64,000 nt of DNA from a bacterium (GCA_021788105.1 JAJYKZ010000001.1:19333-83332), one strand, 5' to 3'; shown: positions 7,001 to 35,056, numbered from the stretch's first letter. Numbers and translations: made by a program. The notes: generated by a model not told the origin, from the sequence alone.

Positions 7001-9004
7001 TTAATTATTGTCAAGAGAAATATTTACGCGATTGGTATAAGACGGAATCCGTCCGGAAATAAAGGTTGGCCAATAGTTGACTTCGACTCGGCTTATGCCA
7101 GGATAAGTCTTTAAATAAGCCTCTAACTGCCCTTCGCTTTTCCCCAAAACTCCCTTCTTTAAATTATCAAGATTAATGCCTGGCAACATTGTCGCCGTTC
7201 CGTGAACGCGAATGGTCAAAATTCCGTTTGCAAAATCGGCATCGGATTTCCCGAATTCCAAAGCAATATTATTTTTCGATATTTGCAAATTATCGGGATT
7301 GTTTTGTTTGATCATATTCTCAACAATGCCCAGTACATCCTCCTGATTGAAAACGATGGCGCTGGCTTTGACATTGGCAGTTATGGAAAAATTGTCAGTT
7401 GCCGTTCCCGAAGAAGCGGAAAGCGCATAGGACGGAGTTCCCATATTAATTGCATCGTCAAGAATAACCACATTTCCCGAATCGCCTTTAATTTTTTGTT
7501 TTACGGCATCGGCTAAATCGGAAGCGAGTTTGTTTTCACCATTGGACACGTCGCTGTCGGAAATAATTTTAACTGTTTCTCCGCTGCTTCCTCCGCCCGC
7601 CATCGCTTGGGATGATTTGGCATAAATCTTAGCATACTTCGCAGTTCCGCTCGCCTTAAATCCTGGAATAGAAAAAGTGCTTGGGCCAATATTATAATCC
7701 GACCCCGAGGCATCTGCCGCTACTTGAGCATCGATCGTGCCCGGCTGAACTTTTCCATTATCTTCAGTCATGCCAGGCACCTCTATGGATTTGACCAGCC
7801 GGAAAATTTTTCCATCGGCAGTTTCAAACCGGGTCGTCGCGACCAAGGGCTGGGAGGCCGGGCTGTATCCGTTATAAATAGTAATGGTTCCGCGCGCTTT
7901 TTGATTGGAAGCTGATCCTCTCCCCGTCGAATCAAACGTTTCGGAGAGCTTCACATTTTCAGAAACAATTTTCACCGGAACGACCTTATTTGACAAATCA
8001 ACTGAAGAAGCCTTGCTGTCGCCTTTGATTTCCGCATCAACCGACTGAGTTTTTCCTTGCGCATAAATGGTTATGTCAGCCCTGGGAACAAAAAGATAAA
8101 GAGCCGCAAGAATTGCAGCTGAAGCAGCGACTGAACCGAACACCCACAAAAATTTTCTAAATTTTCCGGAAACGTCAATTTCGGCGTATTCTTTCTTTTC
8201 TCTGCTTTTTTTGGCTTCCGGCAATTGCTCTTCTTTTTCTGAGAACATTTTTTCTATCCTTCGAACTTTTAAATTTTCCCGCTCGTTTAATTTTGCATGT
8301 TTTTTCTCATCGACTTTTTGAGCCAGACTCCTTTTGACTTTCGGTTTGGGCGGAATTATCTCTTCGTCCGCACCCGGTTCTTCCGCATTTTCGGCGTCCA
8401 ACCTGAGTCCCTGTTTGATGTCTATGTTTCTTATCATATCCATCGATCCTGAAATTTTTCTAGAATTCTTTTTACCGAAAAAAGATTTTTTATTTTTCAA
8501 TTCTTCGCCGATATCCGAAACCAGTTCTTTATTGGTGATTATTTCTTCGCCCGTCTCCTTTTCCATTTCTTCCTTTTCTTCCGGATCGATTGCCGCGTAT
8601 TCCTTTATTTCGTTTTGTCCTTCCGGCCTGTAATATTCAGAAGAACCTATGTCGTCCAGTTTGTTTTTCACTTCCATTCTTTTAATTTCTTTGGCATCCA
8701 GTTTTATCTTCGCTTCTTCGCTCCGGGCGGCGACTTCTTCGCCTTCAATATCGTCCAGTTTTTGTTCGACTAAAATTCCCGTTTTTTCTATCAGCATTTT
8801 TCCCAATTTGTCTTGAGTGACGATTATAATTTCCTTTTTAAGCCTTTCGGCTTCTTTTTTAAGCAGCTTTAAATTAACGATGCTTTGGATAAGCAAGGCT
8901 CTTTTGGGAACGACAATAACAACCTCTTTGACTTTTGCCTTTCTCAGGCGTTCGACAATCGAAGTTATTTCTTCATCTATGTCAATGTAGTAAGTCTGAT
9001 GCAC
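7001..9004 (-). CDS. Hypothetical bitopic membrane protein: ~90 aa conserved N-terminal domain, long charged K/E-rich linker, single TM, ~350 aa extracytoplasmic Ser/Thr/Gly-rich C-terminal domain
   Basis: TM segment FLWVFGSVAASAAILAALYLFV near residue 290. The gene lies immediately downstream of the ftsA-like gene. No recognizable catalytic motifs. Confidence 0.45.
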   Translation of the reverse strand: MHQTYYIDIDEEITSIVERLRKAKVKEVVIVVPKRALLIQSIVNLKLLKKEAERLKKEIIIVTQDKLGKMLIEKTGILVEQKLDDIEGEEVAARSEEAKIKLDAKEIKRMEVKNKLDDIGSSEYYRPEGQNEIKEYAAIDPEEKEEMEKETGEEIITNKELVSDIGEELKNKKSFFGKKNSRKISGSMDMIRNIDIKQGLRLDAENAEEPGADEEIIPPKPKVKRSLAQKVDEKKHAKLNERENLKVRRIEKMFSEKEEQLPEAKKSREKKEYAEIDVSGKFRKFLWVFGSVAASAAILAALYLFVPRADITIYAQGKTQSVDAEIKGDSKASSVDLSNKVVPVKIVSENVKLSETFDSTGRGSASNQKARGTITIYNGYSPASQPLVATTRFETADGKIFRLVKSIEVPGMTEDNGKVQPGTIDAQVAADASGSDYNIGPSTFSIPGFKASGTAKYAKIYAKSSQAMAGGGSSGETVKIISDSDVSNGENKLASDLADAVKQKIKGDSGNVVILDDAINMGTPSYALSASSGTATDNFSITANVKASAIVFNQEDVLGIVENMIKQNNPDNLQISKNNIALEFGKSDADFANGILTIRVHGTATMLPGINLDNLKKGVLGKSEGQLEAYLKTYPGISRVEVNYWPTFISGRIPSYTNRVNISLDNN

Positions 9005-14398: not shown

Positions 14399-15538
14399 TT
14401 ATTTTATCCTCCCTCCGCCCAACAATTCTCCTTTAGCGGTGTAAAATACAGCCGACTGGCCGGGCGAGACTTGCTTTTGCGGTTCAGCAAATTCAACAAG
14501 ATAAGACTTTGCTTCTCCTTGCGGATTTGCTTTTATTATAGCAGATATTGATGGGTGGCGGTACCTGAGCTTTAGCAAAATTTTGGCCGGCAATTTTGGT
14601 TCTTTCGCGAGCCAGTTGGTTCTTTCCACAAAAATGCTTTTATGGAAAAGTTTCGGATCGTCCGGCTTGTTCGTCACGATCAGAAGATTTTTTTTCAAAT
14701 CCTTGCCCGCGACATAATACGGACCGTCGCCGCCGATGTTGATCCCCCGCCGCTGGCCGATCGTATAGAGCGGCAGACCGTCGTGTTCCCCGATGATTTT
14801 CCCTTCCGTGTTCGCAATCTTTCCTCTCTTCAGTTTCAGGTTCCGGCGCAAAAATCCTTCCGGATATTTTTCCGGTGTAAAACACAGTCCTTGTGAATCG
14901 TCTTTGTTGAACACCGGTAAACCCAGTTCTTTGGCAATTTTTCTGATTTCGGATTTTTTGTATTGGCCGACCGGAAACAAAATCCGAGACAATTGATGCT
15001 GATTGAAGTTATACAAAAAATATGATTGATCTTTTTCTTTGTCTTTACCTTGGAATAATCGATAAATTATTCCGGCATTTTTGGAACTTAGCTCCTGCTT
15101 GGCTTCTTTTTTGATCGCGTAATGGCCCGAAGCCACGAAGTCGCCTTCCATCTCCAACATTTTTTTGAGAAGCACGTTGAATTTTATTTTTTCATTGCAG
15201 ACTACGCACGGATTGGGCGTCCGGCCGTTTTTATATTCTTCCAAAAAATAATCCACCACTTCTTTCTTGAATTCCTTCTCGGCATTCGCAGTGTAAAGAG
15301 GAATCCCCAAAATTTTGCAAACTTTTCGGGCATCTTCCAAGGACTCCAAAGAACAACATTTATTTTCGATGGAACTATTAAGCGCCGGCTCCTTCCAGAA
15401 ATGCATAAAGACGCCCACGACATCGTAGCCTTGCTTCTGCAACAGCGCGGCCGCCACCGAAGAATCCACTCCGGAAGACATTCCGACAACCACTCTATTT
15501 TTCTTCTTTGCTTTCATCCAAAATTTTCTTAATTTCAC
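14399..15538 (-). CDS. mnmA: tRNA-specific 2-thiouridylase MnmA
   Basis: PP-loop VVGMSSGVDSSVAA; conserved Cys residues; C-terminal beta-barrel region. Confidence 0.85.
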   Translation of the reverse strand: MKLRKFWMKAKKKNRVVVGMSSGVDSSVAAALLQKQGYDVVGVFMHFWKEPALNSSIENKCCSLESLEDARKVCKILGIPLYTANAEKEFKKEVVDYFLEEYKNGRTPNPCVVCNEKIKFNVLLKKMLEMEGDFVASGHYAIKKEAKQELSSKNAGIIYRLFQGKDKEKDQSYFLYNFNQHQLSRILFPVGQYKKSEIRKIAKELGLPVFNKDDSQGLCFTPEKYPEGFLRRNLKLKRGKIANTEGKIIGEHDGLPLYTIGQRRGINIGGDGPYYVAGKDLKKNLLIVTNKPDDPKLFHKSIFVERTNWLAKEPKLPAKILLKLRYRHPSISAIIKANPQGEAKSYLVEFAEPQKQVSPGQSAVFYTAKGELLGGGRIK

Positions 15539-17324
15539 CCAGATCCGGTTTCTGCTTTTGCGGTTTGAATTTTTTCGGAGCGATGTGCGACATTTGAGAA
15601 AGGCTCATCGGCCTGTCTTGAGGCATATACGCTTTATGCTCAACTTTTCTTTCCTGCGTTTTCGGTTGGACTTTTTTCACAACAATGACTTGCTGGTTGC
15701 CGGCTGCCGGTTGCCGATCTCTGGTTTGTTCCGAACGCGTTTTGGCCATCACCCGCTGATAATCTTTCAAACACTCCTTGCAAAAAGTAGGCCGACTGGG
15801 ATCCGGCTTGAACGGAACTTTGATCGGCTCTTCGCAAGTACTGCAAACGGCGTCATAAATTTCGAATTTTTGCGCATTATCGCCATCATTATCTTTGCTA
15901 ATTTTATTATCAGAAGAAGCATTATTTACCGGAGGCTTCGGCTTTACCACAATTACATTAGGCTGCGTTTTAGGCGGATCGAAAGATGGATCGGAAGCGG
16001 CACTCGTCCGGCCATCTTCCTCTTTTTCTCTGGGAATGAACATGCCGCTCCAGCGCGCAATCTTATCCTCCACATCCCGGCGCTCGCGGCCATATCTTTC
16101 CCGCGAAATTCTGATTACTTTTTCCGCATTTTCAGCCGTGTCATTCAAGTTGAAAGGCGGCAAAGTGGAAGCTGAAAAAGCGTCGCCCGCAATACCGTCG
16201 ATCATCAATTTAAGATAGATGTTGTATTTGGTTAAATTTACAATATCATTCATCAAAAAAACCGGGTCGAATTCTTTTTCCAGATTCTCCGCGTCTTCCG
16301 CTCCTACCCGGAATGAAACAATTGTTCCAACATTGCCAAACACCGCATCGCGCACGGTCGTGTTCCCGTCAAAAACCAACTGATTGATGTATTGGTGAGC
16401 CAGCACCAGATCCAAACGATATTTTCTGGCCTCGGACAAAATATTGGCGAAAGATTCCGTAGCAAAATTTTGGAATTCATCGACATAAAGATAGAAATCT
16501 TTTCTTTCTTCTTCCGGAATTTCAACCCGGCCCATCGCCGCCAGCTGGATTTTGGTAACTATCATTCCGCCCAAAAGCCGCATCGCGTCTTCGCCGATTC
16601 TTCCTTTGGACAGATTGACGATCAATATTTTCTGATTGTCCATGATGTCGCGCATGTCGATCGTCGATTTCGGCTGGCCGACAATGTGGCGAATTATAGC
16701 TGAGGACAAAAATTGACCGACTTTGTTCTGGATGGCTGCCACAGCTTCTTTGCGGAAGCGATCCTCCCATTTGTCAAATTCATTTATCCAAAAAGATTTC
16801 ACGACCGGATCTTTGATTTTGGGATAAACTCTTTTGCGATAATCGCTGTCCGCCATCATCCGGTTTACTCCCAGCATTGTCGAGCCCGGATAATCCAAAA
16901 GGGCTAAAATAGTATTGTTCAAAATATATTCCATCCTCGGACTCCAGACATCCGGCCAGATTTTTTTGAAAACCCCCATCATTCCGGAAGCCACCAGATT
17001 CTTTTTGTCTTCATCCACCGCCTCCAAAATATTAAAAGCGACCGGAAATTCGGCATCGGCCGGATTGAAATAAATGACGTCATTAATCCGATTTGCCGGC
17101 ACGGCCTTGAGCATTTTTTCCGCAAATTCTCCGTGCGGATCAACCACGCAAACACCCTCCCCATTACGAATATCCTGGATCGCCATATTTTCCAGCATAT
17201 TGGATTTTCCCATACCGGTTTTTCCGATAATGTACATGTGCCTTCGCCGATCATCTTTCTTAATTCCAAAATTCACCTCCTGGTTTCTGAAATTGGTTTT
17301 TGCAAAAAAATTAATTTCTGGCAT
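15495..17324 (-). CDS. P-loop ATPase of the VirD4/TraG/HerA (AAA-like, DUF87-type) superfamily with a C-terminal CxxC...CxxC zinc ribbon
   Basis: Walker A IIGKTGMGKSN; Walker B-like FYLYVDEFQNF; CSTCEEPIKVPFKPDPSRPTFCKEC near the C-terminus; no TM segment. Confidence 0.55.
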   Translation of the reverse strand: MPEINFFAKTNFRNQEVNFGIKKDDRRRHMYIIGKTGMGKSNMLENMAIQDIRNGEGVCVVDPHGEFAEKMLKAVPANRINDVIYFNPADAEFPVAFNILEAVDEDKKNLVASGMMGVFKKIWPDVWSPRMEYILNNTILALLDYPGSTMLGVNRMMADSDYRKRVYPKIKDPVVKSFWINEFDKWEDRFRKEAVAAIQNKVGQFLSSAIIRHIVGQPKSTIDMRDIMDNQKILIVNLSKGRIGEDAMRLLGGMIVTKIQLAAMGRVEIPEEERKDFYLYVDEFQNFATESFANILSEARKYRLDLVLAHQYINQLVFDGNTTVRDAVFGNVGTIVSFRVGAEDAENLEKEFDPVFLMNDIVNLTKYNIYLKLMIDGIAGDAFSASTLPPFNLNDTAENAEKVIRISRERYGRERRDVEDKIARWSGMFIPREKEEDGRTSAASDPSFDPPKTQPNVIVVKPKPPVNNASSDNKISKDNDGDNAQKFEIYDAVCSTCEEPIKVPFKPDPSRPTFCKECLKDYQRVMAKTRSEQTRDRQPAAGNQQVIVVKKVQPKTQERKVEHKAYMPQDRPMSLSQMSHIAPKKFKPQKQKPDLGEIKKILDESKEEK

Positions 17325-17341
17325 ATTATTTTTTGAATTAT

Positions 17342-18598
17342 TTATCCGATTGGCAGATTGGCCGGAGCCGATCCGCGTTTTGATTCTACCCGGTTCAATG
17401 CCGGAGTCTTGACTTCCATATGCGGGAAATGATAGAGCGTCGCTAATTCTGAAGTGGAAAGGACGAATTTTTTTCCGTCCATATCCCGATCAACATACCT
17501 GCGATAAATTTTTCTTTTCATCCGCGGCAAAATACTGTCTTTCCCGACATACTTCGCCGATGTCTTGCTCATATTTTCCGGCCTGATATTGTTTAGATTC
17601 AAATCATTGAACTGGCGCATTGCTCCGAAGAAAGCCGTCGTGTTGGACATGCTAAAGCCATCCTTCTTGCCCAAATAAACAAACCTCATTTTTGTTTTAA
17701 AGGCGTTCTTGCCAAGATTATCTTCAATCGCCTTAAGTTGTTCTTTCTCCCCCGGCGTCAACCTGAATTCCAGGGGCTGCTCTTCTTTCTTTTCCGCCTT
17801 TTTAAATTCCACCGGACCCAGCGCTCCCTTAAACAGATTGGAAAAAACATCAACAAAATCCTGCCAAAACCGGTTTTCTTCTTTTTTAGCCCGGCCGGCT
17901 AATTCAGCAATCAGATCTTTTTGCTTCTTTTCATTTTTCCATTTTTCCGGCAAAGGCTCCAGCACAAATTGAAGCCATAAATTTTGCTCCGGAGGAAGCG
18001 CTCCCATATTCTCCACGATTCCCGCCAGCGGATCGATCATAGTTCCGGTAATATCTTCTTCGAATTTATCGTACGTTCTGATCGGAATCGGATCAGCCTC
18101 GACCAATTCCATGTCCGCTCCCCACAACTGCCAATCTTTGTTGGGCACAACTTTGGGAAAACTTTTGACATAATCTTCCACGTCTCTAATCTCCGCGTCC
18201 GGATATTGGGCATAAATGTGAGACTCGACCATGGTCCGATATTTTGTCTGCACTCTGACATAGAAATGAATCTCTCCGCCCAAACTGACCAATTCGAAAC
18301 TGAAGCGGTCCGTAAACATTCCCATACCGTAATTTTCCCAAGCAGTAAAAGTCACCACCACGCCGATCAAACCGTGAAAAATCGACTCCATCGGTTTGGG
18401 ACCTTTTTCCAGATCCTTTGGAGGAATAATTTCGAGCATGGTCCACTGGAGCGACCTGGCCCATTTTTTCTTGATGTAGTCCAGCCAGATCAGTTTAAAA
18501 AGAAAATACAAAAGCGCCGGCAGGATGATCCACCAGAAATAATAAAAGGCCGTTATGGCAGGAGCGAAAGTATTTGAAATGTAAGATAAAAAATCCAT
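17342..18598 (-). CDS. Membrane protein with two N-terminal TM helices and a large cytoplasmic domain, partnered with the upstream ATPase
   Basis: TMs FAPAITAFYYFWWIILPALLYFLF and LIGVVVTFTAW. Its stop lies 18 nt from the ATPase start on the same strand. Confidence 0.45.
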   Translation of the reverse strand: MDFLSYISNTFAPAITAFYYFWWIILPALLYFLFKLIWLDYIKKKWARSLQWTMLEIIPPKDLEKGPKPMESIFHGLIGVVVTFTAWENYGMGMFTDRFSFELVSLGGEIHFYVRVQTKYRTMVESHIYAQYPDAEIRDVEDYVKSFPKVVPNKDWQLWGADMELVEADPIPIRTYDKFEEDITGTMIDPLAGIVENMGALPPEQNLWLQFVLEPLPEKWKNEKKQKDLIAELAGRAKKEENRFWQDFVDVFSNLFKGALGPVEFKKAEKKEEQPLEFRLTPGEKEQLKAIEDNLGKNAFKTKMRFVYLGKKDGFSMSNTTAFFGAMRQFNDLNLNNIRPENMSKTSAKYVGKDSILPRMKRKIYRRYVDRDMDGKKFVLSTSELATLYHFPHMEVKTPALNRVESKRGSAPANLPIG

Positions 18599-18663: not shown

Positions 18664-19770
18664 CTATTTTTTCAGCGCGTAAGTATTGTTGATTTTAACA
18701 AAAGAATTTTCGTTGTTCAAATTGATAAGCACGGTCGCTTTCTTCACCTTGCGGATTTTCATAACTTCCGACATAATTTCATCCTTGGTCATCGGCTTTC
18801 CGCTTTTTGCCAAAATATCTTTCAAAACATCTTTAATGGTTCCCTGCTTGTATCCCCATTCTTTCAAGGCATAAATTCCCCGCCCGATCAGCACGAATCT
18901 GTCGTCTTTGATGAGCTCATTATGCACCGTTTGAGGATGCGCCTTTCTTTTGCTCAAATTATGTTTATCGATCAATTGGGCGATTTCAGAAAAATGCAGA
19001 GGCTTTTCATTTTCCTTCAGCACGAGATGAATCCGTTCCTTGGTTCCCTTAGGATTGATTTCGGGCCAATGCGCCAAGCCCCATTTTTCAAATTTGTTTT
19101 TCTTGATCTTGGAAAAAACCTTAAGAAAACTTGCGATCTGCTTTTTTGTCAGTTCGGACTTTTTGGATGATATTTTTTCGATTATTTCATCGTCAACCAA
19201 AAGATTTTTCTCTATCTGCAATATTTCTTCGGACAATGCGGACAACTCCTGGGCCTTTTCCATAATTTCCTTGGAAACCATCCAGGATTTTTCGATTATT
19301 TTTTCTATTTCTTCAATAATAACCCTGTCGGAGATGGCGGAAAAAAACTTTATGGAATTGATCTCCTTCTTGTCTTTGCCGCCCAGCTTTTCCAGAATTT
19401 CCTGTTCTTTTATTATACCATCATTTTCATGGATTGTAAAAATAATTTTTTCTTCGGCCGCTTTGAATTTTTCGTCGCTTTGTTTTCCGGAAATTCTTCT
19501 GAGGGCATCGGAAATAATCTGCCGGACGCGCTCCCGAGTGATCCTGTAATCTCTCCCTATTTTTTCAAGTGTTTGCGGCTTTTCTCCGGACAAACCGAAT
19601 CGCTTGGCCAGAATTTCCTGCGATCTTTCCGGCAGGTCGGACAATAAATGGCTGGCGGCATCAAAAAAACTCAGCTCTTTGAGAGCATTGTTCTGATCGA
19701 TCGTTTTTTGACCCCTTTGGCCGTTATTATTCATAAATTTATACGCGAAACAAATTACTTTTTTAGTCAA
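18664..19770 (-). CDS. DNA-binding protein with a sigma-70 region-4-like HTH at the N-terminus and a C-terminal winged-helix-like domain
   Basis: TLEKIGRDYRITRERVRQIISDALRRI resembles sigma-70 region 4.2. No region 2 is visible. The true start is possibly the internal Met (MNNNGQ). Confidence 0.45.
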   Translation of the reverse strand: MTKKVICFAYKFMNNNGQRGQKTIDQNNALKELSFFDAASHLLSDLPERSQEILAKRFGLSGEKPQTLEKIGRDYRITRERVRQIISDALRRISGKQSDEKFKAAEEKIIFTIHENDGIIKEQEILEKLGGKDKKEINSIKFFSAISDRVIIEEIEKIIEKSWMVSKEIMEKAQELSALSEEILQIEKNLLVDDEIIEKISSKKSELTKKQIASFLKVFSKIKKNKFEKWGLAHWPEINPKGTKERIHLVLKENEKPLHFSEIAQLIDKHNLSKRKAHPQTVHNELIKDDRFVLIGRGIYALKEWGYKQGTIKDVLKDILAKSGKPMTKDEIMSEVMKIRKVKKATVLINLNNENSFVKINNTYALKK

Positions 19771-19796
19771 GCCATATTAGCACATATTGAATATTT

Positions 19797-19825
19797 TTGT
19801 CAAGGGTGACAGGTTTCATTAATAA
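19797..19825 (+). promoter_or_regulatory. Putative sigma-70-type promoter for the plus-strand pyrD/pyrC island, with an overlapping palindrome TGTCAagggTGACA
   Basis: TTGTCA at 19797..19802, 17 nt spacer, TAATAA at 19820..19825. Strong SD AAAGAGGAGG lies 6 nt upstream of the ATG at 19904. Confidence 0.3.
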
Positions 19826-19903: not shown

Positions 19904-20879
19904 ATGAAAATAGGAGGAGTCGAATTTCATAACATATTCCTTCCTTCAGGAACTTTGAATTTTGAGAAGCAAGGTTGGCCGCATCATAAGCTGTATAAGC
20001 TCATTCCTGGATTTGGATACAAGAACGCCACCTTTGTCGCCAAAACGACGACGCTTCTTGAAAGACCTGGAAATATAGAATTGGATCCGGAAACATTAAT
20101 GCCCAAAAAAAATGTTTCCTGATTGTATTTATGTAAATTTCTGGAAGGCGCTTGTCATGAATGTAGTAAACCTGAGCGGCCCAGGTGCAAAAATTCTTTT
20201 TGAGAGAGGCAAATGGTTTGAGATTCTTGAAAACTTCTGGCTTTCTTTTATGACCATAGCAGAAACAAAAGAAGAGCGACTAAAAGAATTTCAAGATTTC
20301 ATAGATCTCTTAAAAAAATATTTGCCTTTTTTCAGAGCCAGGATCGGACTTAAAGTAAACATCACTTGTCCAAACACGGCGCACAACCTCAAGGAGATCG
20401 AGGATGAAGTCATGCATTTTTTAGAAATCGCCGCCAGACTGGGAATTCCCATTGGGATCAAAGTCAATATCTTCACTAGCACTAAAACAGTAAAAAGAAT
20501 TTTCAATGCCGGCCTTTGTGATGCAGTTTTCGTGTCTAACACGATCAGATGGGGAGAAATTTCCGAACGAATAAATTGGGAAAAGCTGTTTGGAAGAAAA
20601 GTATCACCTCTGAAAAAATATGGTGATAATGCTGGAGCCATGTCAGGCTGGCCCGCATTGCCGCTAGTAAAAGAGTGGGTCTCGGAGGCAAGAGGGATAG
20701 GAATCGACGGAATAATTATAGGAGGAAACGGAATATCTCGCAAAGAACACATAGATTTACTTTTTCCTCTCGTGGACGGATTCTCCATAGGTTCGGCCGG
20801 AATGGTTCGGCCGCATAGATTGCAAGGACTCATAAATTATGCGGATCAAAAAATTACAGAAAGAAACGGGAGAAACTAA
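19904..20879 (+). pseudogene. pyrD: Dihydroorotate dehydrogenase-like gene (class 1, catalytic Cys retained) interrupted by a frameshift in an A8 run at 20105..20112
   Basis: ORF 19904..20122 (GVEFHNIFLPSGT..VAKTTTLLERPGN) and ORF 20112..20879 (VVNLSGPG..NITCPNT..IIIGGNGI..GSAG) align to consecutive parts of DHODH. Removing one A joins them. Confidence 0.6.
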
Positions 20880-21947
20880 ATGAAAAACGAACCAGAAGAA
20901 ATTGTTCTTGAAAATCTCTTCTCACAACATTCGCATTTGCGAGAAGGAAAAATGCTTGATGCCACGGTGCCGGCCAATTCCCCCTATTCTCTGGTTGTCC
21001 AAATACCAAACCTTGCAAATCCGGTTGATTCAGGAAAACGGTTAAAAGAACATCAAACCGAAGTCCTGTCTCACGAGCCGAATTTTCAGATCGTATGGGG
21101 AATCATGATAACTAAAAGAACCACCCGCCAAGATATCAAAGATGCTTATCATCTTGGAGCTCGCTTTATTAAATACATCCCAGCAAAAACCTCTACTAAT
21201 TCTTCAGGTGGAATTGGAATAACTCTCGATGAACTGCCAAACCACTATGACAAATTCGAAGAGGGTTTCAAGCTCGGAATGGCATCCCTCAACCACATTG
21301 AGAGAGCCTATACCAAAGACGGCAAAGAAATCCCATACATATTCCGAGAAGAAAGAGCCATCGAAGATTTTGACCGACTGGTGCGCACCTTTCCAAGAGA
21401 AAAAATTAGGGCGGAACATGTCAGCACTCGTTCACTTATAGATTATATTGCCACTGCCCCAGCCAATGTTAAGGGCGGCTTTGCCATTCAGCATGCCAAA
21501 AAAACATATGTCGATGTTTTTCCAAGCTCAGGCAATATCATCTATGAAAACTTCTGTATGCCGGTCTTAAAAAATGAATACAACCGGCAAATGGTGGAAT
21601 GGGAAATGGCAAAAGGAAATCACAAAGACTTCCGTTATACCCCTGATGATGCATATCATCCATGGGGGAAAAAGCTCGAGAGCATTCCAGGATGTTTTCT
21701 TCCGCCTATCATTGCACTTCCGCTTCTGTGCCAAATCTTTGAGAAACACGGAGCACTGAATCGCCTACAGGAATTCGCTGGCATAACAAAAGGGGATGAA
21801 GAATTTTTCGGCATCCAAGCTGAAAAAAAGAAAAAGATTATAATGATAAATGAGACTTGGAGGGTTCCGGAAATAATCCACGGCACAGCCCCCTTCATGA
21901 AGGGAGAATTACTGAGCTGGAAAATAAAGGAGGTAATAGAGATATAA
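20880..21947 (+). CDS. pyrC: Dihydroorotase-like amidohydrolase (E. coli type II PyrC-like)
   Basis: FSQHSHLREGKMLDATVP...IPNLANPV parallels E. coli WHLHLRDGDMLKTVVP...MPNLAPPV. KYIPAKTSTNSSGGI parallels KLYPANATTNSSHGV. Confidence 0.65.
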   Translation: MKNEPEEIVLENLFSQHSHLREGKMLDATVPANSPYSLVVQIPNLANPVDSGKRLKEHQTEVLSHEPNFQIVWGIMITKRTTRQDIKDAYHLGARFIKYIPAKTSTNSSGGIGITLDELPNHYDKFEEGFKLGMASLNHIERAYTKDGKEIPYIFREERAIEDFDRLVRTFPREKIRAEHVSTRSLIDYIATAPANVKGGFAIQHAKKTYVDVFPSSGNIIYENFCMPVLKNEYNRQMVEWEMAKGNHKDFRYTPDDAYHPWGKKLESIPGCFLPPIIALPLLCQIFEKHGALNRLQEFAGITKGDEEFFGIQAEKKKKIIMINETWRVPEIIHGTAPFMKGELLSWKIKEVIEI

Positions 21948-26157: not shown

Positions 26158-27102
26158 TTACAAAGTTGTGATAGGCCGAGACTGAGTAATATAAAATTTT
26201 CCTTTTTCCAATGCCCACTCAATATCTTGCGGTTTTTTGTAATGCTTCTCGATATTTAAACAAATCTTAGCCATAGCTTTAATTTGAGTGTCAGTCAATT
26301 TCTGCTTTTCCTGTTTTGAAATTGGAACTTTAGTTTCCACAATACCCTTCGCACCATTCTTCACAATCATCATTTCCTGCTGAGAAATATTTTTATCTAA
26401 AATAGAATTATCTTGCTTACGAACAATATAAGTATCAGGGGTTATTTTTCCGCCCACAATCGCCTCTCCCAATCCATATCCTGCTTCAATTACCATTTGT
26501 TTCCGATCGCGTGTCACCGGATGAGCTGTAAAAGAAATTCCAGAAATTTCCGATTGGACCATTTTTTGAACAACAACAGCGACAGAAACTTTTTGATCAT
26601 GCAGTTTTTTCTCAAACCGATAAAAAATTGCCCGGGGAGTAAAAAGCGATGACCAGCAGAGTTTGACCGACTCCAATAAATTTTTCTTAGTAACATTCAA
26701 ATAAGTTTCCAATTCACCGGCCCAAGAAGCCACCGACGAGTCTTCTGCCGTAGCAGATGAGCGAACAGCTACCAAAGGAGCTTTCAGAATTGAAAATTCT
26801 TTTGTTATTTCCTGCGCAATATCTTTGGGAAATTTTGCGTCCAAAATCAAATCTCTAATTTTCTCCGAAGCTTTCTCAACTGAATTGATGTTATCCGGTT
26901 TTACCTTTTTTATCACAGCTTCTATTTCCACATCTAAATCAGTTTCTTCTAAAAATCTATCAAAAGCCGATGCCAGCACAACAAAACCCGGCGGCACCGG
27001 AATTCCCGCCTTGGTCATTTCGCCAAGCGATGCACCTTTTCCTCCCGCAATGTCGACGTTTTTATAGGTCAGTTGTTTGAATGTTTTGATAAATTCAGGC
27101 AT
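26158..27102 (-). CDS. Stand-alone ATP-grasp nucleotide-binding protein (PPDK_N-like)
   Basis: GGKGASLGEM, VAVRSSATAEDSSVASWAGELETYLNV, VAVVVQKMVQSEISGISFT, DIEWA. No His domain or TIM barrel follows. Confidence 0.75.
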   Translation of the reverse strand: MPEFIKTFKQLTYKNVDIAGGKGASLGEMTKAGIPVPPGFVVLASAFDRFLEETDLDVEIEAVIKKVKPDNINSVEKASEKIRDLILDAKFPKDIAQEITKEFSILKAPLVAVRSSATAEDSSVASWAGELETYLNVTKKNLLESVKLCWSSLFTPRAIFYRFEKKLHDQKVSVAVVVQKMVQSEISGISFTAHPVTRDRKQMVIEAGYGLGEAIVGGKITPDTYIVRKQDNSILDKNISQQEMMIVKNGAKGIVETKVPISKQEKQKLTDTQIKAMAKICLNIEKHYKKPQDIEWALEKGKFYITQSRPITTL

Positions 27103-27114
27103 ACAAATTTAAAC

Positions 27115-28488
27115 TTAATTTTTTAAAATCTTCACAATACCTTTATTTGCATCAACCTCGACCAAATCACCATCTTTCAAAATTTTCGTTGCAATTTTAG
27201 TTCCAATGATACAGGGCTTATTCCATTCCCTCGCAACAATTGCTGCATGACAAGTTATACCCCCTTCGTCCGTTACAAATGCCACTGCTTTTTTCATGCA
27301 TGGCATAAAGTCAGGAGTAGTCATAGTTGTTATTAAAATATCTCCTTCTGAAACCTTACTTTGCTCACTGGCCTTTAAAATAATCCTTACCGTACCTTTA
27401 ATTTTTCCGCTGCAAGCTACCATTCCTTTCAATTCTTTAATATCGTGAATTGCAGATATGTTAAGTGAATTTATTTTTTGAATTAATTTTTTTCCAAATA
27501 ATAATTCAATTTTATTATCATGAAGCAAAAAACCATGACCCAATTTCCTTTCTTTTATAATTTTATTCGAAACTTTTATATTTTTTTCAAACAAATCTTT
27601 TATTTCACTCAAAAGATAGTATCCTAGGTCATTTTCTTTTACTAAAAATTTCTTGCCTATTTCATTCCAAAGAGTCTCTAGGTAAAATAGAGCTTCGTAA
27701 AGCTTTTCTGTTCGATAATTTCTAAAATAAACGAATTCTTTCATTAAATTCATGAACTCCTCTTCTTTTTTGTCAAATTTAAATCTATTCTTTATTGTTC
27801 CGTATTTTTTATTGTTCAAATCTAATTCCTCTAGCTTTTTTTTGAAAAAATTAAAATCATAACCTTTCGAGAACGGCTCCCTATACCCTAAAAAAGAATA
27901 TTTATTTAAATGTTTTTTTAGAGCTTGATCTAAATCTACTTCAGAATAATTATGATTTTTAATTCTTCTAAGATCAATTTCCTCCAAAACAGGAGAATTC
28001 ATTTTTTCAGGCTTGGAAATATTTATAAGAATACCATTCATTTCGCTTTCTTCAATCCCCTTTTTCTTTAAAATATCAATCAGTTTATCTTCAATAGATT
28101 TTGCTAATGGGTGTGTTTGTGGTAAAAAAACTAATAAATTCTTCAGAAGCTCTACGCTAATCCAAAAATCATTTTCAAGCTTACTAAGATTAGTTTTATT
28201 AATTTTTAATTTTCGCGAAAAACTTATTAACTTTTCTCCATTAACATATCCATTCTTGGTAAAATCCCAGAAAAAATTAAGCGGTTTGTTTTGATACTTT
28301 TTAGCAACAGCTTCCATCCAATTCATATCAAAATAAAAATCACCATCAATAATTTCTAAATTTTTAACATAGTCATTAAATTTAGCAATTTTTTTAAATC
28401 TCTTTTCGTCATTCCAAGACCTGATTAAAATATCATCTGTCAAAACAGCGTGCTTTCGTGATAATAATTTTTGAAAATTTGGTTTCAT
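27115..28488 (-). CDS. Paralog A: divergent N-terminal domain plus C-terminal PEP-utilizers mobile (phosphohistidine swivel) domain
   Basis: C-terminus ...LKGMVACSGKIKGTVRII...[48 protein letters not shown]...[19 protein letters not shown]. Confidence 0.7.
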   Translation of the reverse strand: MKPNFQKLLSRKHAVLTDDILIRSWNDEKRFKKIAKFNDYVKNLEIIDGDFYFDMNWMEAVAKKYQNKPLNFFWDFTKNGYVNGEKLISFSRKLKINKTNLSKLENDFWISVELLKNLLVFLPQTHPLAKSIEDKLIDILKKKGIEESEMNGILINISKPEKMNSPVLEEIDLRRIKNHNYSEVDLDQALKKHLNKYSFLGYREPFSKGYDFNFFKKKLEELDLNNKKYGTIKNRFKFDKKEEEFMNLMKEFVYFRNYRTEKLYEALFYLETLWNEIGKKFLVKENDLGYYLLSEIKDLFEKNIKVSNKIIKERKLGHGFLLHDNKIELLFGKKLIQKINSLNISAIHDIKELKGMVACSGKIKGTVRIILKASEQSKVSEGDILITTMTTPDFMPCMKKAVAFVTDEGGITCHAAIVAREWNKPCIIGTKIATKILKDGDLVEVDANKGIVKILKN

Positions 28489-28495
28489 GTTTTAC

Positions 28496-30058
28496 TTATT
28501 TTAATATCTTCACAACCCCCTTATTCGCATCCACCTCAACCAAATCGCCGGTTTTTATTGCCTTAGTCGCAATGTGTAGTCCAATGACACAAGGCTTATT
28601 CAATTCACGAGAAACTATAGCAGCATGTCCGGTAACGCCACCTTCATCACAAACCAGAGCCTTGCACAACCTAATAGCAGGCATATATGTAGGATGAGTT
28701 TGAGGCGCAACCAAAATACTTCCCTCCGGCATTTCATGAACTTTTTTAGAAACATCATCGCTCCAATAAAATACAAAGGCCTTTCCCCTAACGAATCCCG
28801 TGTTTCCAATTTCCCCCTTCATTTCTTTTAGTTTATCGTAATCTACGGCGCCTAAAATTTCAGCTTTTTTTTCTAGCGCTTCCTTGCCCCACCAAATATA
28901 ATCTTTACCTTCGTAATGTAAATATAATTCGGCTTCAGCTCTCCTTGCCAACTCCTCTTTTTCCACGATCATTTTCCCTTCCAAGGCACTGATCAATTCG
29001 TCCTTTGTCATACTCGATATCTCTTCATATGACAGAGCAAGCTCTTCTGAATATTTTTTTAAAATTAAAACAAGATAATAACCTATCCACCTCCAAAAAA
29101 ATCCTGATTTAAACCTATAAAAACCTACTTTAGAAATTTTTTGAGCAAGCCCCAAGACTTCTTCAGAAAATCCATACCTTTCAATGATCTCTTTCTTTGT
29201 TTTAACGGCATTTTCATATTGATTTAAAATATCTTGCCTTTTTCTCTTGTAATCAATATCATTTTTGAGGCTGGTTTTTAATAAAAAAATAAAGTGATCA
29301 ATGTCCCATGCGGGGGTCCTATCACTCGCCGGAATCAGTCTGTACCTTCGATAATGTTCTTTTAGTAAAACTAAAATCTCATTGTAATTATCAGAAAGCA
29401 ATCCTTGTGACAGATAATTAATATCTTTCTCATGGATAATATTTTTCGCTTCTATGACTATTTCTAACCAAGCCAATTCTTCATGAGTAAAGAAAGACTT
29501 TTCTTCTGGAATCGTTAAAGCTACAAATACTTCTTCAACTAACCTTTCATCTTTTAATATTTTTCTGATCTCGCTATAAAGCTGGTTTTTTAAAGCATCG
29601 GTTAATTGTGGTTGACTACATCGCATGAAAGATGCCAGCCTATATTCAATATCTATTAATGAAGGTATTAAAGAAATAATTTCGTTTTTAGAAAAGCTAT
29701 CAATCTTATCCTCCAATTTATATCTTTCCATTATTTTTTCAACTTCTTTACAATCATTGTCTATCATTGAATACCATCTGGCTAACCACTCTTCATCAAA
29801 AAAAATTTTCTTTCCATGTTCAGTAGCCCTTGCCATATCCTTATCAACATAATAACCCCCGTGGATCCCTCCAATTTCAGTCGAATCACTATACCAAAGA
29901 TAATAGTCATATTTAAAGCCGGTAATCTTATCCATCAAACTCCTTCCCCTTAAGAACGGACGGATAAAAAGCTGATATGCCAATAGGTGACCGAGATTGG
30001 GACCTTCATACATCAATTTCCAGTTTAATTTTTTCGGAATAGGGTTTTGTTGCGACAT
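28496..30058 (-). CDS. Paralog B: divergent N-terminal domain plus C-terminal phosphohistidine swivel domain
   Basis: C-terminus ...[27 protein letters not shown]...[17 protein letters not shown]. Confidence 0.7.
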   Translation of the reverse strand: MSQQNPIPKKLNWKLMYEGPNLGHLLAYQLFIRPFLRGRSLMDKITGFKYDYYLWYSDSTEIGGIHGGYYVDKDMARATEHGKKIFFDEEWLARWYSMIDNDCKEVEKIMERYKLEDKIDSFSKNEIISLIPSLIDIEYRLASFMRCSQPQLTDALKNQLYSEIRKILKDERLVEEVFVALTIPEEKSFFTHEELAWLEIVIEAKNIIHEKDINYLSQGLLSDNYNEILVLLKEHYRRYRLIPASDRTPAWDIDHFIFLLKTSLKNDIDYKRKRQDILNQYENAVKTKKEIIERYGFSEEVLGLAQKISKVGFYRFKSGFFWRWIGYYLVLILKKYSEELALSYEEISSMTKDELISALEGKMIVEKEELARRAEAELYLHYEGKDYIWWGKEALEKKAEILGAVDYDKLKEMKGEIGNTGFVRGKAFVFYWSDDVSKKVHEMPEGSILVAPQTHPTYMPAIRLCKALVCDEGGVTGHAAIVSRELNKPCVIGLHIATKAIKTGDLVEVDANKGVVKILK

Positions 30059-30059
30059 T

Positions 30060-30890
30060 TTATAAAAATAAAGTGGTTATCGGTCTTGCTTGAGTTATGT
30101 AAATTATACCTCCTTCGATGGCCCATTCTATATCCATAGGCCTACCGTAATGCGCTTCGATGTCCAAAATATTCTCTAATAAAGATAGGAAATATTTTGT
30201 TGGCAATTTCTGTGCATTCCTCTTTTCTAAAGATACTTCCAATCTTTCATTTTCAAGCCTATCCTCATTAAAACATAATTTAAATTCTTGGTAGTTGATT
30301 TTTTTATCAATTATTTTTTTACTCTTTTTGTCGAAAATATATTTGTCCGGAGTAATAATTCCTGAAACCATATATTCCCCAAGACCAAAACCCGCTTCGA
30401 CCATAATCTCGTTTGCATTTTTGTTTATTGGATTATTGGAGAAAGCAATACCTGAAATTTCCGATTGTATCATTTTTTGGACGACCACTGCTATTTTTAT
30501 TTCCTCTGGGTTCACATGTTTTCCTTTACAATAATTAATTATTCTTTCACTATTTAATGAATTGTAACATTCTGATATTTTTTCAATCAGCTTATCTCTC
30601 GTCACATTCAAAAATGTATCAAACTGCCCTGCAAAGCTCGTATCAAACGCATCTTCTTTTGTTGCACTACTTCTTACAGCTACGGTTTTTATTTTTAGCT
30701 TATCAAAATTATTTAAAATTTCATTGGAAAATTCTTCTAAATTTTTTAAATCAATTTCCGTACTCAAAACAAAGCCTTCCGGGACATTAACATTTTTTAT
30801 GCCCTTAAGCTCACCAAGAGAAGAACCTTTCCCGCCAAAAAGTGCTACCTCACTCCTGGAAATCGATCTTAAAAACTTAATTTCCTCCAT
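30060..30890 (-). CDS. Second stand-alone ATP-grasp nucleotide-binding protein (PPDK_N-like)
   Basis: FGGKGSSLGEL, VAVRSSATKEDAFDTSFAGQFDTFLNV, AVVVQKMIQSEISGIAFS, DIEWA. Confidence 0.7.
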   Translation of the reverse strand: MEEIKFLRSISRSEVALFGGKGSSLGELKGIKNVNVPEGFVLSTEIDLKNLEEFSNEILNNFDKLKIKTVAVRSSATKEDAFDTSFAGQFDTFLNVTRDKLIEKISECYNSLNSERIINYCKGKHVNPEEIKIAVVVQKMIQSEISGIAFSNNPINKNANEIMVEAGFGLGEYMVSGIITPDKYIFDKKSKKIIDKKINYQEFKLCFNEDRLENERLEVSLEKRNAQKLPTKYFLSLLENILDIEAHYGRPMDIEWAIEGGIIYITQARPITTLFL

Positions 30891-31911
30891 TTCTTTTTCC
30901 GGAAATAACGTCTGCTATCGTTATTTCTTTTAGCAAATTACCGCTTTTCGTAAATATATTTTTATCTGGTTCAACATCCAAATCATATTCTTTTCCTCTT
31001 AAACGAAATTTTATTGAAACTTTGCCATTTTTTTCTTTTCTTTTGATTGAAATGTTGACTGCCTCATTGGGCTCAAAAGCTCCTCCCATTTTTTCCAAAA
31101 TATCTGACCCGTCAGAACAAACCGGATCTTCCTCAATTTGATCTTGCAACAAATAAACGAGAAAAGGTTCGATAAATCCGGCATGATTGACGTCATATAC
31201 AAATACCTTAGAATCATTTTTTAACCTGTTTGAAGCTTCAACATATTTTTTAAAATGTTCTGTCATTCTTAATACAACTTCCAAAACAGAGATTCCGTCT
31301 TCCTTCACTTGTTTGTCTTTAAAATTTTTAATGATAGATTCTTCCTTATCAGAATTTTCTTTTGATCCATCAGTTTTATCAATGATTTTTTTCAAATAAT
31401 CGAGATCGTCCATCAAATATTTTATCCACAATGCAACTCCCGCGTTTTCTTTTTTCAATGACGAGCTGGCACTTTTTTCAGTAGCCTCTTTATATGCTTG
31501 TCGTATTTGCGGAGATATTAAATTAACATCTTTTGATTCACTTGATTCATTCATTATTTTTTTCACGATCACACCTTCTTTACTGATAACTCCCGTTGGC
31601 AGATCCCTGACTCGCAAATTGACTTTTTTCTTTTCGTCGTCCATAACAAAAGTGTCATTACTTTCAAAACCTTCTTCTATTTTCATTCCTGTATGAACAG
31701 CGCGTTCGATCGGAGTAGTTCTTACCGCAACAACATCATACCCGCTCAAATCCTTACCCTTTGCTAATTCGACAACTTTTTCAGGATTAGCTATCCTTGA
31801 TGCATTAAAAGAACCTTTCTCGCCATGACGAGCAAGTTCCACATCTATTTCTACATTGTTTCCAAACTCTCCCGATTCCTTTTGCTCAATTCTTTCAAAT
31901 GGATTTTTCAT
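30877..31911 (-). CDS. Possible histidine-phosphatase-superfamily protein (RHG motif)
   Basis: VELARHGEKGSFN resembles the PGM-family RHGE signature. Otherwise a divergent K/E-rich sequence. Confidence 0.4.
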   Translation of the reverse strand: MKNPFERIEQKESGEFGNNVEIDVELARHGEKGSFNASRIANPEKVVELAKGKDLSGYDVVAVRTTPIERAVHTGMKIEEGFESNDTFVMDDEKKKVNLRVRDLPTGVISKEGVIVKKIMNESSESKDVNLISPQIRQAYKEATEKSASSSLKKENAGVALWIKYLMDDLDYLKKIIDKTDGSKENSDKEESIIKNFKDKQVKEDGISVLEVVLRMTEHFKKYVEASNRLKNDSKVFVYDVNHAGFIEPFLVYLLQDQIEEDPVCSDGSDILEKMGGAFEPNEAVNISIKRKEKNGKVSIKFRLRGKEYDLDVEPDKNIFTKSGNLLKEITIADVISGKRNGGN

Positions 31912-31921
31912 ATTTTTAATT

Positions 31922-32209
31922 TTAATTATTATAACTTTTTAAAATCTTCACAATCCCCTTATTTGCATCCACTTCAACCAAATCACCATCTTTCAAAACT
32001 TTAGTGGCAATCCTTGTTCCAATTATACATGGCTTTTTTAGTTCGCGCGAGACAATTGCCGCATGACAAGTTATACCGCCTTCGTCGGCTGACTGATTCA
32101 GTTTCTTATTTTTAGATTTTATGAACTTAACCAGTCCTTGCGCCCAAAATCCTTCCAGTATTAAGCTAAGGTCCCGTTCATATTCTTTTGTCAGATGAAT
32201 TTTTGGCAT
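31922..32209 (-). pseudogene. Remnant of a paralog: isolated phosphohistidine swivel domain (95 aa) lacking the N-terminal domain
   Basis: ...[51 protein letters not shown] is near-identical to the paralog C-termini. The upstream region is non-homologous. Confidence 0.5.
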
Positions 32210-32211
32210 GA

Positions 32212-32676
32212 TTAAATTTTTTCCGATATCATTTCCAAAACCGCCTGAGTCGCTTCTGCCCCTTTGTTATTTTTCCCTCGCGACCGGTCTTGGGCTTGTT
32301 TGAGATTATTTGTTGTTATCACTCCAAATCCGATTGGAATATCATATTTCAGCATTACATCCATAATTCCCCGCGCGGCTTCATTAGATACAAAATAGTA
32401 ATGATCAGTGCCACCCTTGATTACGCAACCTAAAGCAATCAGTGCATCAAACTTTTTGGTTTTAGCTGCTTTTTGACAAGCCAATGGAATTTCAAAAGCG
32501 CCTGGAACCCAAACTGTTTTGATGTTGGATTTTTTAACTTTATTTTTTTCCAGAACATCCATCGTGCCCTGAAGCATCCCTCCGGTGATGTCGGAATTAA
32601 ATTTTGAAACCACGATTCCGATTTTCAATTTGCTCCCGTCGATTGTTTCTTTTTTTTGGTTATTTTTTCTTTGCAT
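32212..32676 (-). CDS. ribH: 6,7-dimethyl-8-ribityllumazine synthase
   Basis: [14 protein letters not shown]...[12 protein letters not shown]...[15 protein letters not shown]. Confidence 0.85.
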
Positions 32677-33263
32677 TATTTTGTTCTTAATAACTTATTT
32701 AAATATTTCGCCAAAACGTCTGTTTCGATATTGACATAATTTCCAACAGAAATTTTTCCCAAATTGGTATTATCCAAAGTATAACTCACTAGAGAAACCG
32801 TAAACCAATCTTTGCCAGTATCAACAACGGTGAGACTAATGCCGTCAATTGCAATTGATCCTTTTTCCGCCACAAACTTCATAAACTCTTTCGAAATTTT
32901 AATTTTAATAATCTCAGATTCCTTCACCTTTTGGATTTCAATTACCTCTCCGGTCGTATCCACATGACCTTGCACAATGTGCCCATCTAGAAGATCGCTC
33001 ATTTTCAAACTTTTTTCTAAATTAACCGCTGTTCCTTTTTGAAAATTGCCTGCAGTAGTTTTTTTAATTGTTTCCGGCATATATTCAACTTCAAAAATGC
33101 TTTTGGAAAAATTTTTAACAGTCGAACAGACCCCATTTATGGCAATGCTTTCACCTTTCCAAACTTTCCAACCTTTGGGAATTTTTATAGACACAAAAAA
33201 ACTCCCTTTTTTTTCGGATATTTTTTCCACCGCTGAAACTTTTTGAATAATTCCTGTAAACAT
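32676..33263 (-). CDS. ribE: Riboflavin synthase alpha subunit
   Basis: MFTGIIQKV...GESIAINGVCSTV duplicated lumazine-binding motif. Confidence 0.85.
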   Translation of the reverse strand: MFTGIIQKVSAVEKISEKKGSFFVSIKIPKGWKVWKGESIAINGVCSTVKNFSKSIFEVEYMPETIKKTTAGNFQKGTAVNLEKSLKMSDLLDGHIVQGHVDTTGEVIEIQKVKESEIIKIKISKEFMKFVAEKGSIAIDGISLTVVDTGKDWFTVSLVSYTLDNTNLGKISVGNYVNIETDVLAKYLNKLLRTK

Positions 33264-33278
33264 TTTGTAATTTGAAAC

Positions 33279-33608
33279 TTAAAATTTTAAATTTGAAATT
33301 TTTTTAATATCTTTAGCAATTTGTTCTTTTAGTTTTTCCTCGCTTTCAAATTTCATGACATCTCTGATTTTTTGACCGAGCTCTATCCGTATTTCCATGC
33401 CGTAAATATCCTGGTTAAAATTAAATAAATAAGCTTCTAAAAGATTTTGGAAAACAAATATAGCTGCCGCATATTCTTTTCCTTCAACAATCACACTTCC
33501 TCCATAAATTCCACTAGCAATATCTTCCTTCAGTTCTACATTGGCCGTTGGAAATCCCAGTTCCCTGCCTCTTGCTTTACCCTTAATGACTTTACCAGAT
33601 ATTTTCAT
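33279..33608 (-). CDS. Riboflavin kinase (stand-alone flavokinase domain)
   Basis: GKARGRELGFPTANV is the riboflavin kinase signature. Confidence 0.7.
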   Translation of the reverse strand: MKISGKVIKGKARGRELGFPTANVELKEDIASGIYGGSVIVEGKEYAAAIFVFQNLLEAYLFNFNQDIYGMEIRIELGQKIRDVMKFESEEKLKEQIAKDIKKISNLKF

Positions 33609-33610
33609 TT

Positions 33611-35054: not shown

Positions 35055-35056
35055 TT

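Follow-up and report, generated by a model that had tools for sequence, protein, structure and literature searches.

The stretch of DNA analysed here (64,000 nucleotides (nt), GCA_021788105.1 JAJYKZ010000001.1:19333-83332; hereafter the window) belongs to a Moranbacteria-like genome of the Patescibacteria and carries two adjacent, co-directional open reading frames (ORFs) on its minus strand. Their protein products are a 418-amino-acid (aa) membrane protein containing the domain of unknown function DUF8128 and a 609-aa ATPase of the kind found in type IV coupling proteins (T4CPs). An earlier note on this DNA had recognised both ORFs and their shared strand, and had placed between them a gap of 18 nt that measures 17 nt. 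Full-length homologues of both ORFs number in the hundreds to thousands and, as judged from sequence, the gene pair is far beyond chance. Coordinates of the features discussed are collected in Table 1.

The ATPase was assigned to its family by profile and sequence searches. Pfam returned TrwB_AAD_bind (PF10412) at 51 bits, with a cut-off of 20.5, over ATPase residues 21-341 and profile positions 9-311 of 387, along with DUF87 (40.9 bits, above its cut-off), T4SS-DNA_transf and TraG-D_C (weak). In the PDB sequence search only three matches fell below E 1e-4, and these were the coupling proteins TrwB and DotL (phmmer, TrwB 3e-6). A profile of the ATPase core, built from nine divergent homologues, matched TrwB of R388 in hhalign at 96.6% over 265 columns (TrwB 118-391), a range that presumably includes the all-alpha domain of TrwB, whereas its match to the R388 VirB4 protein TrwK stood at 2%. 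The best NCBIfam models were TraD and the CD1115-type VirD4, all far under their equivalog cut-offs; HerA equivalogs reached 17-18 bits against cut-offs of 800-970, and the Pfam and NCBIfam scans gave no FtsK_SpoIIIE match. These comparisons place the ATPase among the coupling proteins and outside VirB4, HerA and FtsK. The VirD4-type assignment of the earlier note therefore stands, and the hidden Markov models place the protein in the TrwB/VirD4 group rather than in an unrelated P-loop family such as KAP or ABC, the alternative that the note had raised.

The protein has no hydrophobic window anywhere along its length and lacks a membrane domain of its own, and its Walker A and Walker B motifs are as previously described. 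Beyond the nearly invariant core lies a tail rich in K, P, S and Q. This had been read as a zinc ribbon followed by one long low-complexity tail, of which the ribbon was recovered (PF23477 and TIGR04272), with 17 rather than 16 residues between its cysteine pairs. Low complexity is confined to two variable linkers on either side of the ribbon, whose cysteines are invariant in the ATPase alignment, and the protein closes on a conserved peptide (PMSLSQMSHIAPKKFKP, within residues 566-589) for which no family match was obtained. The ribbon is lineage-dependent: among six divergent lineages described below it is present in L088-L090 and absent in L085-L087.

The 418-aa protein and all its homologues carry DUF8128 (PF26449) as a precomputed domain. 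The family comprises ~1,900 clusters at 50% identity, and our literature search found no paper naming it. Near the N-terminus lies a hydrophobic stretch of approximately residues 11-42, in which W22 and P27 are invariant. Two transmembrane (TM) helices had been proposed here; the AlphaFold2 (AF2) model built from 50 homologues (predicted local distance difference test (pLDDT) 78, predicted template modelling score 0.74) has one unbroken helix, residues 2-49, and we therefore assign a single TM helix. Because a KKK/R cluster follows this helix, the large domain should be cytoplasmic (N-out, C-in). When the model was compared with the PDB using Foldseek, the 13 best matches were TrwK chains, all of them, and the best matches in BFVD were the N-terminal halves of phage G gp156 and of proteins from phages Slash and JL; the VirB4-like gp155 was also matched. 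Since DUF8128 has no P-loop, and no P-loop ATPase other than those of TrwK/VirB4 type was among the fold matches, the matched part would be the N-terminal domain of VirB4. The cytoplasmic domain of DUF8128 is predicted from the model to adopt this fold, which in VirB4 is involved in dimerisation and in contacts with VirB3 and VirB8 (review PMC12857230).

At the other end of the protein, a conserved C-terminal region contains eight invariant residues (E384, A386, H390, P392, P412, N414, L415 and P416), and its terminal NLP is retained even behind long insertions. This region connects the two genes to single-gene homologues in phages and plasmids. An 812-aa 'conjugative DNA transfer' protein from a plasmid of Embleya (Streptomycetaceae) has the same two-part layout with one TM helix; its N-terminal part matches DUF8128 at 85.6% in hhalign, and its linker ELAALAHLP...PPARIP corresponds to the SELATLYHFP...PANLP that ends the 418-aa protein. 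The linker of gp156 from Bacillus phage G (825 aa) aligns with the same motif, and on either side of it gp156 residues 29-320 match the DUF8128 profile (hhalign 98.4%, E 4e-15) and residues 373-751 match the ATPase (27% identity, E 5e-39). In phrog_5156, a family of unknown function with 824 positions, DUF8128 matches positions 63-367 (7.2e-12) and the ATPase positions 396-815 (4.9e-62). By alignment, then, the C-terminal region of DUF8128 is the counterpart of the inter-domain linker in fused T4CPs, and the suggestion that the patescibacterial pair is a split protein is borne out by these fused versions. A split arrangement also occurs on Haloterrigena pHTS138, where the gene for a 1034-aa T4CP begins within that for a 399-aa DUF8128 homologue (hhalign 97.7%); the gene just before the pair encodes a 1099-aa 'conjugal transfer protein', and a pilin gene lies upstream as well. 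The phage, Bacillus and haloarchaeal N-domain homologues lack any TM helix, as do most non-patescibacterial N-domains, and membrane anchoring is therefore not the main role of the domain. The idea of a separately encoded anchor was thus correct insofar as DUF8128 is an obligate, conserved partner with a TM helix, but incomplete, in that the protein is also the N-terminal domain, of ~350 residues, of long T4CPs.

With tblastn, the ATPase type was located on 291 plasmids, which come from Streptomyces, Bacillus, Staphylococcus, Clostridium, haloarchaea and Sulfolobus; for the DUF8128 type the number was 16 plasmids. All of the elements examined except a Microcystis phage encode, in addition, a separate VirB4-like ATPase, and in three of them (SPO1, Embleya and B. 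subtilis) the T4CP homologue adjoins a Replic_Relax relaxase. The long T4CP, next to a relaxase and accompanied by a separate VirB4-like ATPase, therefore occupies the position expected of a coupling protein. Rather than an otherwise uncharacterized system, as had been considered, the pair by homology represents the kind of T4CP that conjugative elements carry in monoderm bacteria and in archaea. As a side observation, in Bacillus phage SPO1 (L093, gp27.9-gp27.3) the neighbours of the fused DUF8128-T4CP gp27.4 are gp27.3, a 'nicking' protein of Replic_Relax type, and a ParA-like partition protein, and in phage G (L092) gp156 is paired with the VirB4-like ATPase gp155; a conjugation-like module is thus carried by lytic or jumbo Bacillus phages.

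We next consider how the pair is conserved. The species survey covered 80 loci from GTDB species representatives of Moranbacteria or Parcubacteria type; the underlying contig scan used a closer DUF8128 alignment (A1), a second alignment (A3) being too divergent, and the 80 loci are biased to Moranbacteria-like close relatives. In 79 of them a gene encoding a protein with sigma-70 region 4 and a HARE-HTH domain (sigma4/HARE-HTH), the DUF8128 gene and the ATPase gene follow one another on one strand, and the contig of the 80th stops 168 nt past DUF8128. The pair is accordingly kept together among relatives, a point on which the earlier note had staked its proposal. The trio is likewise kept in nine further contigs (L001-L003, L085-L090), including six divergent lineages (L085-L090) whose DUF8128 is 30-37% identical and in which secD-secF usually precede the trio. 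Every time, the patescibacterial trio lies in core-genome synteny (secDF, efp, mnmA, alaS, ftsA), never in the mobile context of the other phyla. Expressed as the median identity to the window protein across the 80 loci, conservation was 85% for ATPase core residues 1-430 (76 species loci), 85% for FtsA (3 loci only), 57% for MnmA, 55.5% for AlaRS, 51% for DUF8128 and 50% for the sigma4/HARE-HTH protein. The ATPase core is under very strong purifying selection.

Two observations on the surveyed records are of separate interest. Many GTDB records named 'uncultured Bdellovibrionales bacterium' (L006, L010, L012, L013, L016 and others) carry the patescibacterial trio at 50-65% identity, with mnmA and alaS downstream in several and ftsA in L010 and L013; the label of those assemblies is probably wrong. 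Two contigs of one Moraniibacteriota metagenome-assembled genome (JBBINP01; L054 and L055) carry one copy of the trio each; the copies are paralogues, or else the bin is mixed. The published mean is approximately two t4cp homologues per patescibacterial genome.

The first gene of the trio was found immediately 5' of DUF8128 in the same 79 loci and nine further contigs, and holds the place where mobile elements put a relaxase beside the T4CP. In the window its ORF is 368 aa long, while the public gene call is 356 aa and begins at an ATG at 19734, which is probably the true start. PDB matches of its product were sigma region 4 without exception. A promoter-like site lies just 5' of the trio, and the site scan found no terminator-like site within its two intergenic gaps. 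No paper on sigma4/HARE-HTH proteins of Patescibacteria was found in our literature search.

Table 1. Positions of the gene trio and its features, counted from the first letter of the window
Feature	Position	Strand	Basis or remark
Promoter-like site, TTGACA-18-TAATAT with TG, just 5' of the trio	19774..19803	minus	consensus scan only
First gene of the trio: sigma-70 region 4 (residues 42-93) and HARE-HTH (residues 244-305)	18664..19770	minus	Pfam PF04545 5.5e-14, PF05066 1.4e-11
DUF8128 (PF26449) protein, 418 aa	17342..18598	minus	N-terminal TM helix and cytoplasmic domain; counterpart of the N-terminal half of long T4CPs
DUF8128 single hydrophobic TM segment, residues 11-39, FAPAITAFYYFWWIILPALLYFLFKLIWL, then KKK/R	18482..18568	minus	Kyte-Doolittle windows 14-42
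DUF8128 conserved C-terminal region: SELATLYHFP (residues 383-392) and terminal PxNLP (412-416)	17345..17452	minus	alignments
TrwB/VirD4-type coupling-protein ATPase without TM domain, 609 aa	15495..17324	minus	Pfam, PDB, hhalign, phrog_5156
ATPase core, residues 1-430	16035..17324	minus	nearly invariant among homologues
Walker A GKTGMGKS, residues 34-41	17202-17225	minus	within ATPase core
Walker B YLYVDEFQNF, residues 278-287	16464-16493	minus	within ATPase core
Zinc ribbon CxxC-x17-CxxC (C494-C518)	15771..15845	minus	PF23477 4.1e-09, TIGR04272 4.4e-10
Conserved C-terminal peptide of the ATPase, YMPQDRPMSLSQMSHIAPKKFKPQ, residues 566-589	15558..15629	minus	conserved block of alignment A2, variable tail around it

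Taken on the family assignment, the split/fusion relationship, the strict synteny and the very strong purifying selection, we consider that the two genes very likely encode one machine, a long T4CP split into two chains that form a single unit. In the mechanism that we propose, DUF8128 would be anchored in the membrane by its single N-terminal helix and provide a cytoplasmic scaffold resembling the VirB4 N-terminal domain, and its conserved ELATLYHFP...PxNLP region would dock the TrwB/VirD4-type P-loop motor, itself without a membrane domain. The ATPase would then oligomerise at the membrane and spend ATP in passing a substrate, most likely DNA or nucleoprotein, to a membrane channel. That channel would most likely be a type IV secretion system (T4SS) of VirB4/VirB6 type encoded elsewhere in the Patescibacteria genome, and the sigma4/HARE-HTH protein may serve as a DNA-binding adaptor or regulator of the pair. 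Physical docking, oligomerisation, substrate, direction of transport and coupling to a T4SS are all features that we infer. As a whole, a two-chain split long T4CP that is docked at the membrane and feeds a T4SS channel is probably the best explanation of the locus. That the pair works with a T4SS is a more tentative proposition, to which we give slightly less than an even chance; the argument for it is that elsewhere the family adjoins VirB4-like ATPases or other conjugation genes, the Microcystis phage excepted.

Several results weigh against this explanation. The Pfam scan of 38 ORFs from the window revealed no gene for VirB4, VirB6 or a relaxase, and the flanks of the related patescibacterial loci examined likewise contained no T4SS or relaxase genes. 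This fits a published survey in which 148 of 5,713 VirD4-type T4CP homologues from 2,918 Patescibacteria genomes were near virB4, and whose authors left exaptation open (PMC12102498), as well as the T4SS of Southlakia, the sole genetically tested patescibacterium, which is essential and whose cluster has no recognisable coupling protein (PMC10633639). The distant t4cp homologue of that organism was moreover reported to be non-essential (PMC12102498). With an essential T4SS that has no recognisable coupling protein in its cluster and a t4cp homologue reported as non-essential, coupling of the pair to a T4SS is at most a tentative proposal. The 85% identity of the ATPase core, equal to that of FtsA, is unusual for a conjugative T4CP and a better fit to a housekeeping role. 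The relationship of DUF8128 to the VirB4 N-terminal domain is structural only and comes from a predicted model: a PDB hmmsearch with alignment A3 returned nothing at E<=10, none of the 36 sequences in A3 had a Pfam match, and hhalign comparisons with TrsD, TrsE, TrwK, phage G gp155 and three other VirB4-like ATPases stayed at or below 1.2%. For the ATPase itself, residues 105-215 are helical in an AF2 model of low reliability (pLDDT 51; alignment of 35 sequences, ~70% identical).

Some of these points would be accommodated if the split T4CP had been domesticated in an ancestor of the Patescibacteria as a housekeeping translocase that acts independently of a T4SS, together with the sigma4/HARE-HTH protein, in a core process, for example the handling of chromosomes during division, the uptake of DNA, or membrane-located transactions that involve nucleoprotein or are linked to RNA polymerase. 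Conservation of the ATPase core at the level of FtsA, far above AlaRS and MnmA, argues for such an exaptation, as do the fixed core-genome position outside any mobile context, the lack of a relaxase or virB4 gene among the scanned ORFs, the small share of patescibacterial t4cp genes near virB4 and a conserved partner that is a sigma-like DNA-binding protein instead of a relaxase. We nevertheless regard it as rather unlikely: t4cp genes encoded away from virB4 are common even in ordinary systems, the analysis turned up neither another channel nor another partner, a function cannot be read from high conservation by itself, and FtsK has been reported in the literature for TM7x, albeit another lineage than this one, so that the FtsK role is not obviously vacant. 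The competence or DNA-uptake link proposed by the earlier note found nothing in its favour. In its fullest form this account, which we hold to be equally doubtful, posits a universal, vertically inherited two-chain membrane translocase (a VirB4-N-terminal-domain-like anchor and a TrwB-like motor, with a zinc ribbon in some lineages) that carries out, with the sigma4/HARE-HTH protein, a housekeeping DNA or nucleoprotein transaction without a T4SS; handling of the chromosome, movement of DNA inwards or outwards at the host interface and a process coupled to transcription would be examples. If it were true, T4CPs and VirB4 would share an ancestral two-domain architecture and the proteobacterial T4CPs with only a TM domain would be derived.

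The fold predicted for DUF8128 raises another possibility, namely that the pair is a split VirB4 paralogue, one gene for the N-terminal domain and one for the ATPase, which energises assembly or transport as VirB4 or CedB/CedD of the Sulfolobales do. Here the combined length (418 aa plus a core of ~430 residues) and the order of domains resemble those of R388 VirB4 (823 aa), the model matches the N-terminal domain of TrwK, weak NCBIfam matches to CedD (residues 14-88) and VirB4_plasma occur near Walker A, and hhalign gave a partial match of 84.7% with the VirB4 protein TrsE of pSK41 in the Walker B and C-terminal part. We find this reading improbable given the disparity between TrwB and TrwK in hhalign, the VirB4-type Pfam model AAA_10 at E 0.04 and 13.4 bits, under its cut-off of 27.5, the lack of any CagE_TrbE_VirB match in Pfam, and the genes around the homologues, which in the elements examined are accompanied by a separate VirB4-like ATPase, save in the Microcystis phage, and in three cases adjoin a relaxase. 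Identity with CedD was dropped, as the likeness is confined to Walker A. Least probable of all, to the point of being scarcely credible, is that the pair serves in anti-phage defence or is left over from an integrated mobile element or prophage. The ATPase does match mad8 of the MADS system in PADLOC (1.5e-17, 62 bits) and, weakly, HerA models, the upstream sigma4/HARE-HTH protein has a weak match to MzaA, a defence-associated sigma factor, and it is phages and plasmids that carry the closest fused homologues. The GC content of the pair, though, is that of its flanks, and its extreme sequence conservation and its constant position in the species representatives and in deeply divergent lineages are unlike defence islands or prophages; beside the pair no integrase, other MADS component or phage gene was found, and the two neighbouring proteins gave no MADS match. 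We therefore rejected a prophage or mobile island, on the unchanged GC and the position fixed across species, and a defence system, on the fixed core synteny and the neighbours without a MADS match.

Returning to the split long T4CP, comparison with known systems brings out what is shared and what is particular to Patescibacteria. With TrwB of R388 and VirD4 the ATPase shares a P-loop motor with the same Walker A/B context, alignable over TrwB 118-391. It differs in lacking the N-terminal two-helix membrane domain, in place of which the partner gene provides a TM helix and a large alpha/beta domain, in its extra zinc ribbon and conserved C-terminal peptide, in having no relaxase or T4SS genes nearby, and in belonging to a pair that is chromosomal, vertically inherited and extremely conserved. 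The closest parallels are the long two-domain T4CPs (PHROG 5156, phage G gp156, SPO1 gp27.4, the Embleya 812-aa protein, a 913-aa 'DUF87' protein of a B. subtilis plasmid and the pHTS138 pair), which have a DUF8128-like N-domain, the ELAxLxHxP linker motif and a TrwB-like ATPase in the same order, with pHTS138 sharing the split as well. They are only 23-33% identical to this ATPase, most lack a TM helix, and they lie in conjugation-type clusters, adjoined by VirB4-like ATPases in the case of phage G and the plasmids, several of them having Replic_Relax relaxases, pilins or cell-wall hydrolases nearby, whereas the patescibacterial version is core-genomic, has no relaxase and is tied to the sigma4/HARE-HTH gene. 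VirB4/TrwK of R388 similarly has an N-terminal alpha/beta domain followed by an ATPase of the FtsK-HerA superfamily; it shows no sequence-level similarity, however, and is one polypeptide, while here there are two, of which the ATPase half is T4CP-like. CedB and CedD, of the Sulfolobales Ced DNA import system, resemble the pair in having a TM segment, an N-domain like part of the VirB4 N-terminal domain and a HerA/VirB4-like ATPase, and Ced is a chromosomal, T4SS-derived system with no relaxase (PMC11868833). Unlike the pair, CedB and CedD are single polypeptides of the HerA/VirB4 clade, their likeness to the ATPase is limited to its Walker A region, residues 14-88, and no CedA-like channel gene is adjacent here.

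Within the window, the trio belongs to a co-directional run in which the ATPase gene is followed by mnmA, a gene of the Na/Ca-exchanger family, three small ORFs, alaS and ftsA. An overlap of 44 nt between the ATPase gene and mnmA had been proposed, which applies only if mnmA starts at GTG 15538. The public gene call on the identical contig starts mnmA at ATG 15517, so that its protein begins MKAKKKNRVVVGMSSGVDSS, and the overlap is probably 23 nt. The tight packing is genuine in this genome but restricted to it, relatives having gaps of ~80-500 nt. Directly 3' of ftsA, a 667-aa ORF (7001-9004, minus) has no Pfam match; its counterpart at the same place in relative L001, 45% identical, likewise has none. 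On the other side of the trio, three plus-strand ORFs (72, 255 and 355 aa; 19904-21947) without a Pfam match lie between the sigma4/HARE-HTH gene and yceG, two genes that are ~150-400 nt apart in many relatives; GC and AT skew change sign there, and the segment looks like a lineage-specific insertion. Further away, a low-GC block on the minus strand (26158-40078; 0.31-0.36, with ~0.43 elsewhere) is made up of tandem paralogues, seven or more of them with the PEP-utilizers mobile domain (PF00391) at the C-terminus, together with two PPDK_N genes, and is broken by a lumazine-binding (riboflavin-synthase-like) gene and several ORFs without a Pfam match; such an expansion of paralogues among split PEP-synthase/PPDK-like proteins is unusual. 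This otherwise reduced genome also has a gene for a PAS-GGDEF diguanylate cyclase (44630-45679, minus).

The ATPase family and its abundance in Patescibacteria were already known from published work. What appears to be new is the obligate pairing with DUF8128, the conserved third gene and the FtsA-like conservation, as well as, from homology, the apparent equivalence of the pair to the long T4CPs that occur in fused form in phages and in the elements of monoderms and archaea and, from the predicted model, the apparent VirB4-N-terminal-domain fold of DUF8128. For the 'orphan' t4cp genes counted by the thousands in Patescibacteria (PMC12102498), this means that in the lineage described here the ATPase gene is one of a pair, with DUF8128 as its obligate partner, and is accompanied by a third conserved gene, all three being under selection as strong as that acting on proteins of cell division; DUF8128 itself gains a first structural and functional handle. 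The data further suggest a possible evolutionary link, in the form of a VirB4-like N-domain, across the coupling proteins of Gram-positive, actinobacterial and archaeal elements and phages. In cultivable Patescibacteria, these genes offer targets with which to ask whether the essential T4SS or another process uses the motor.

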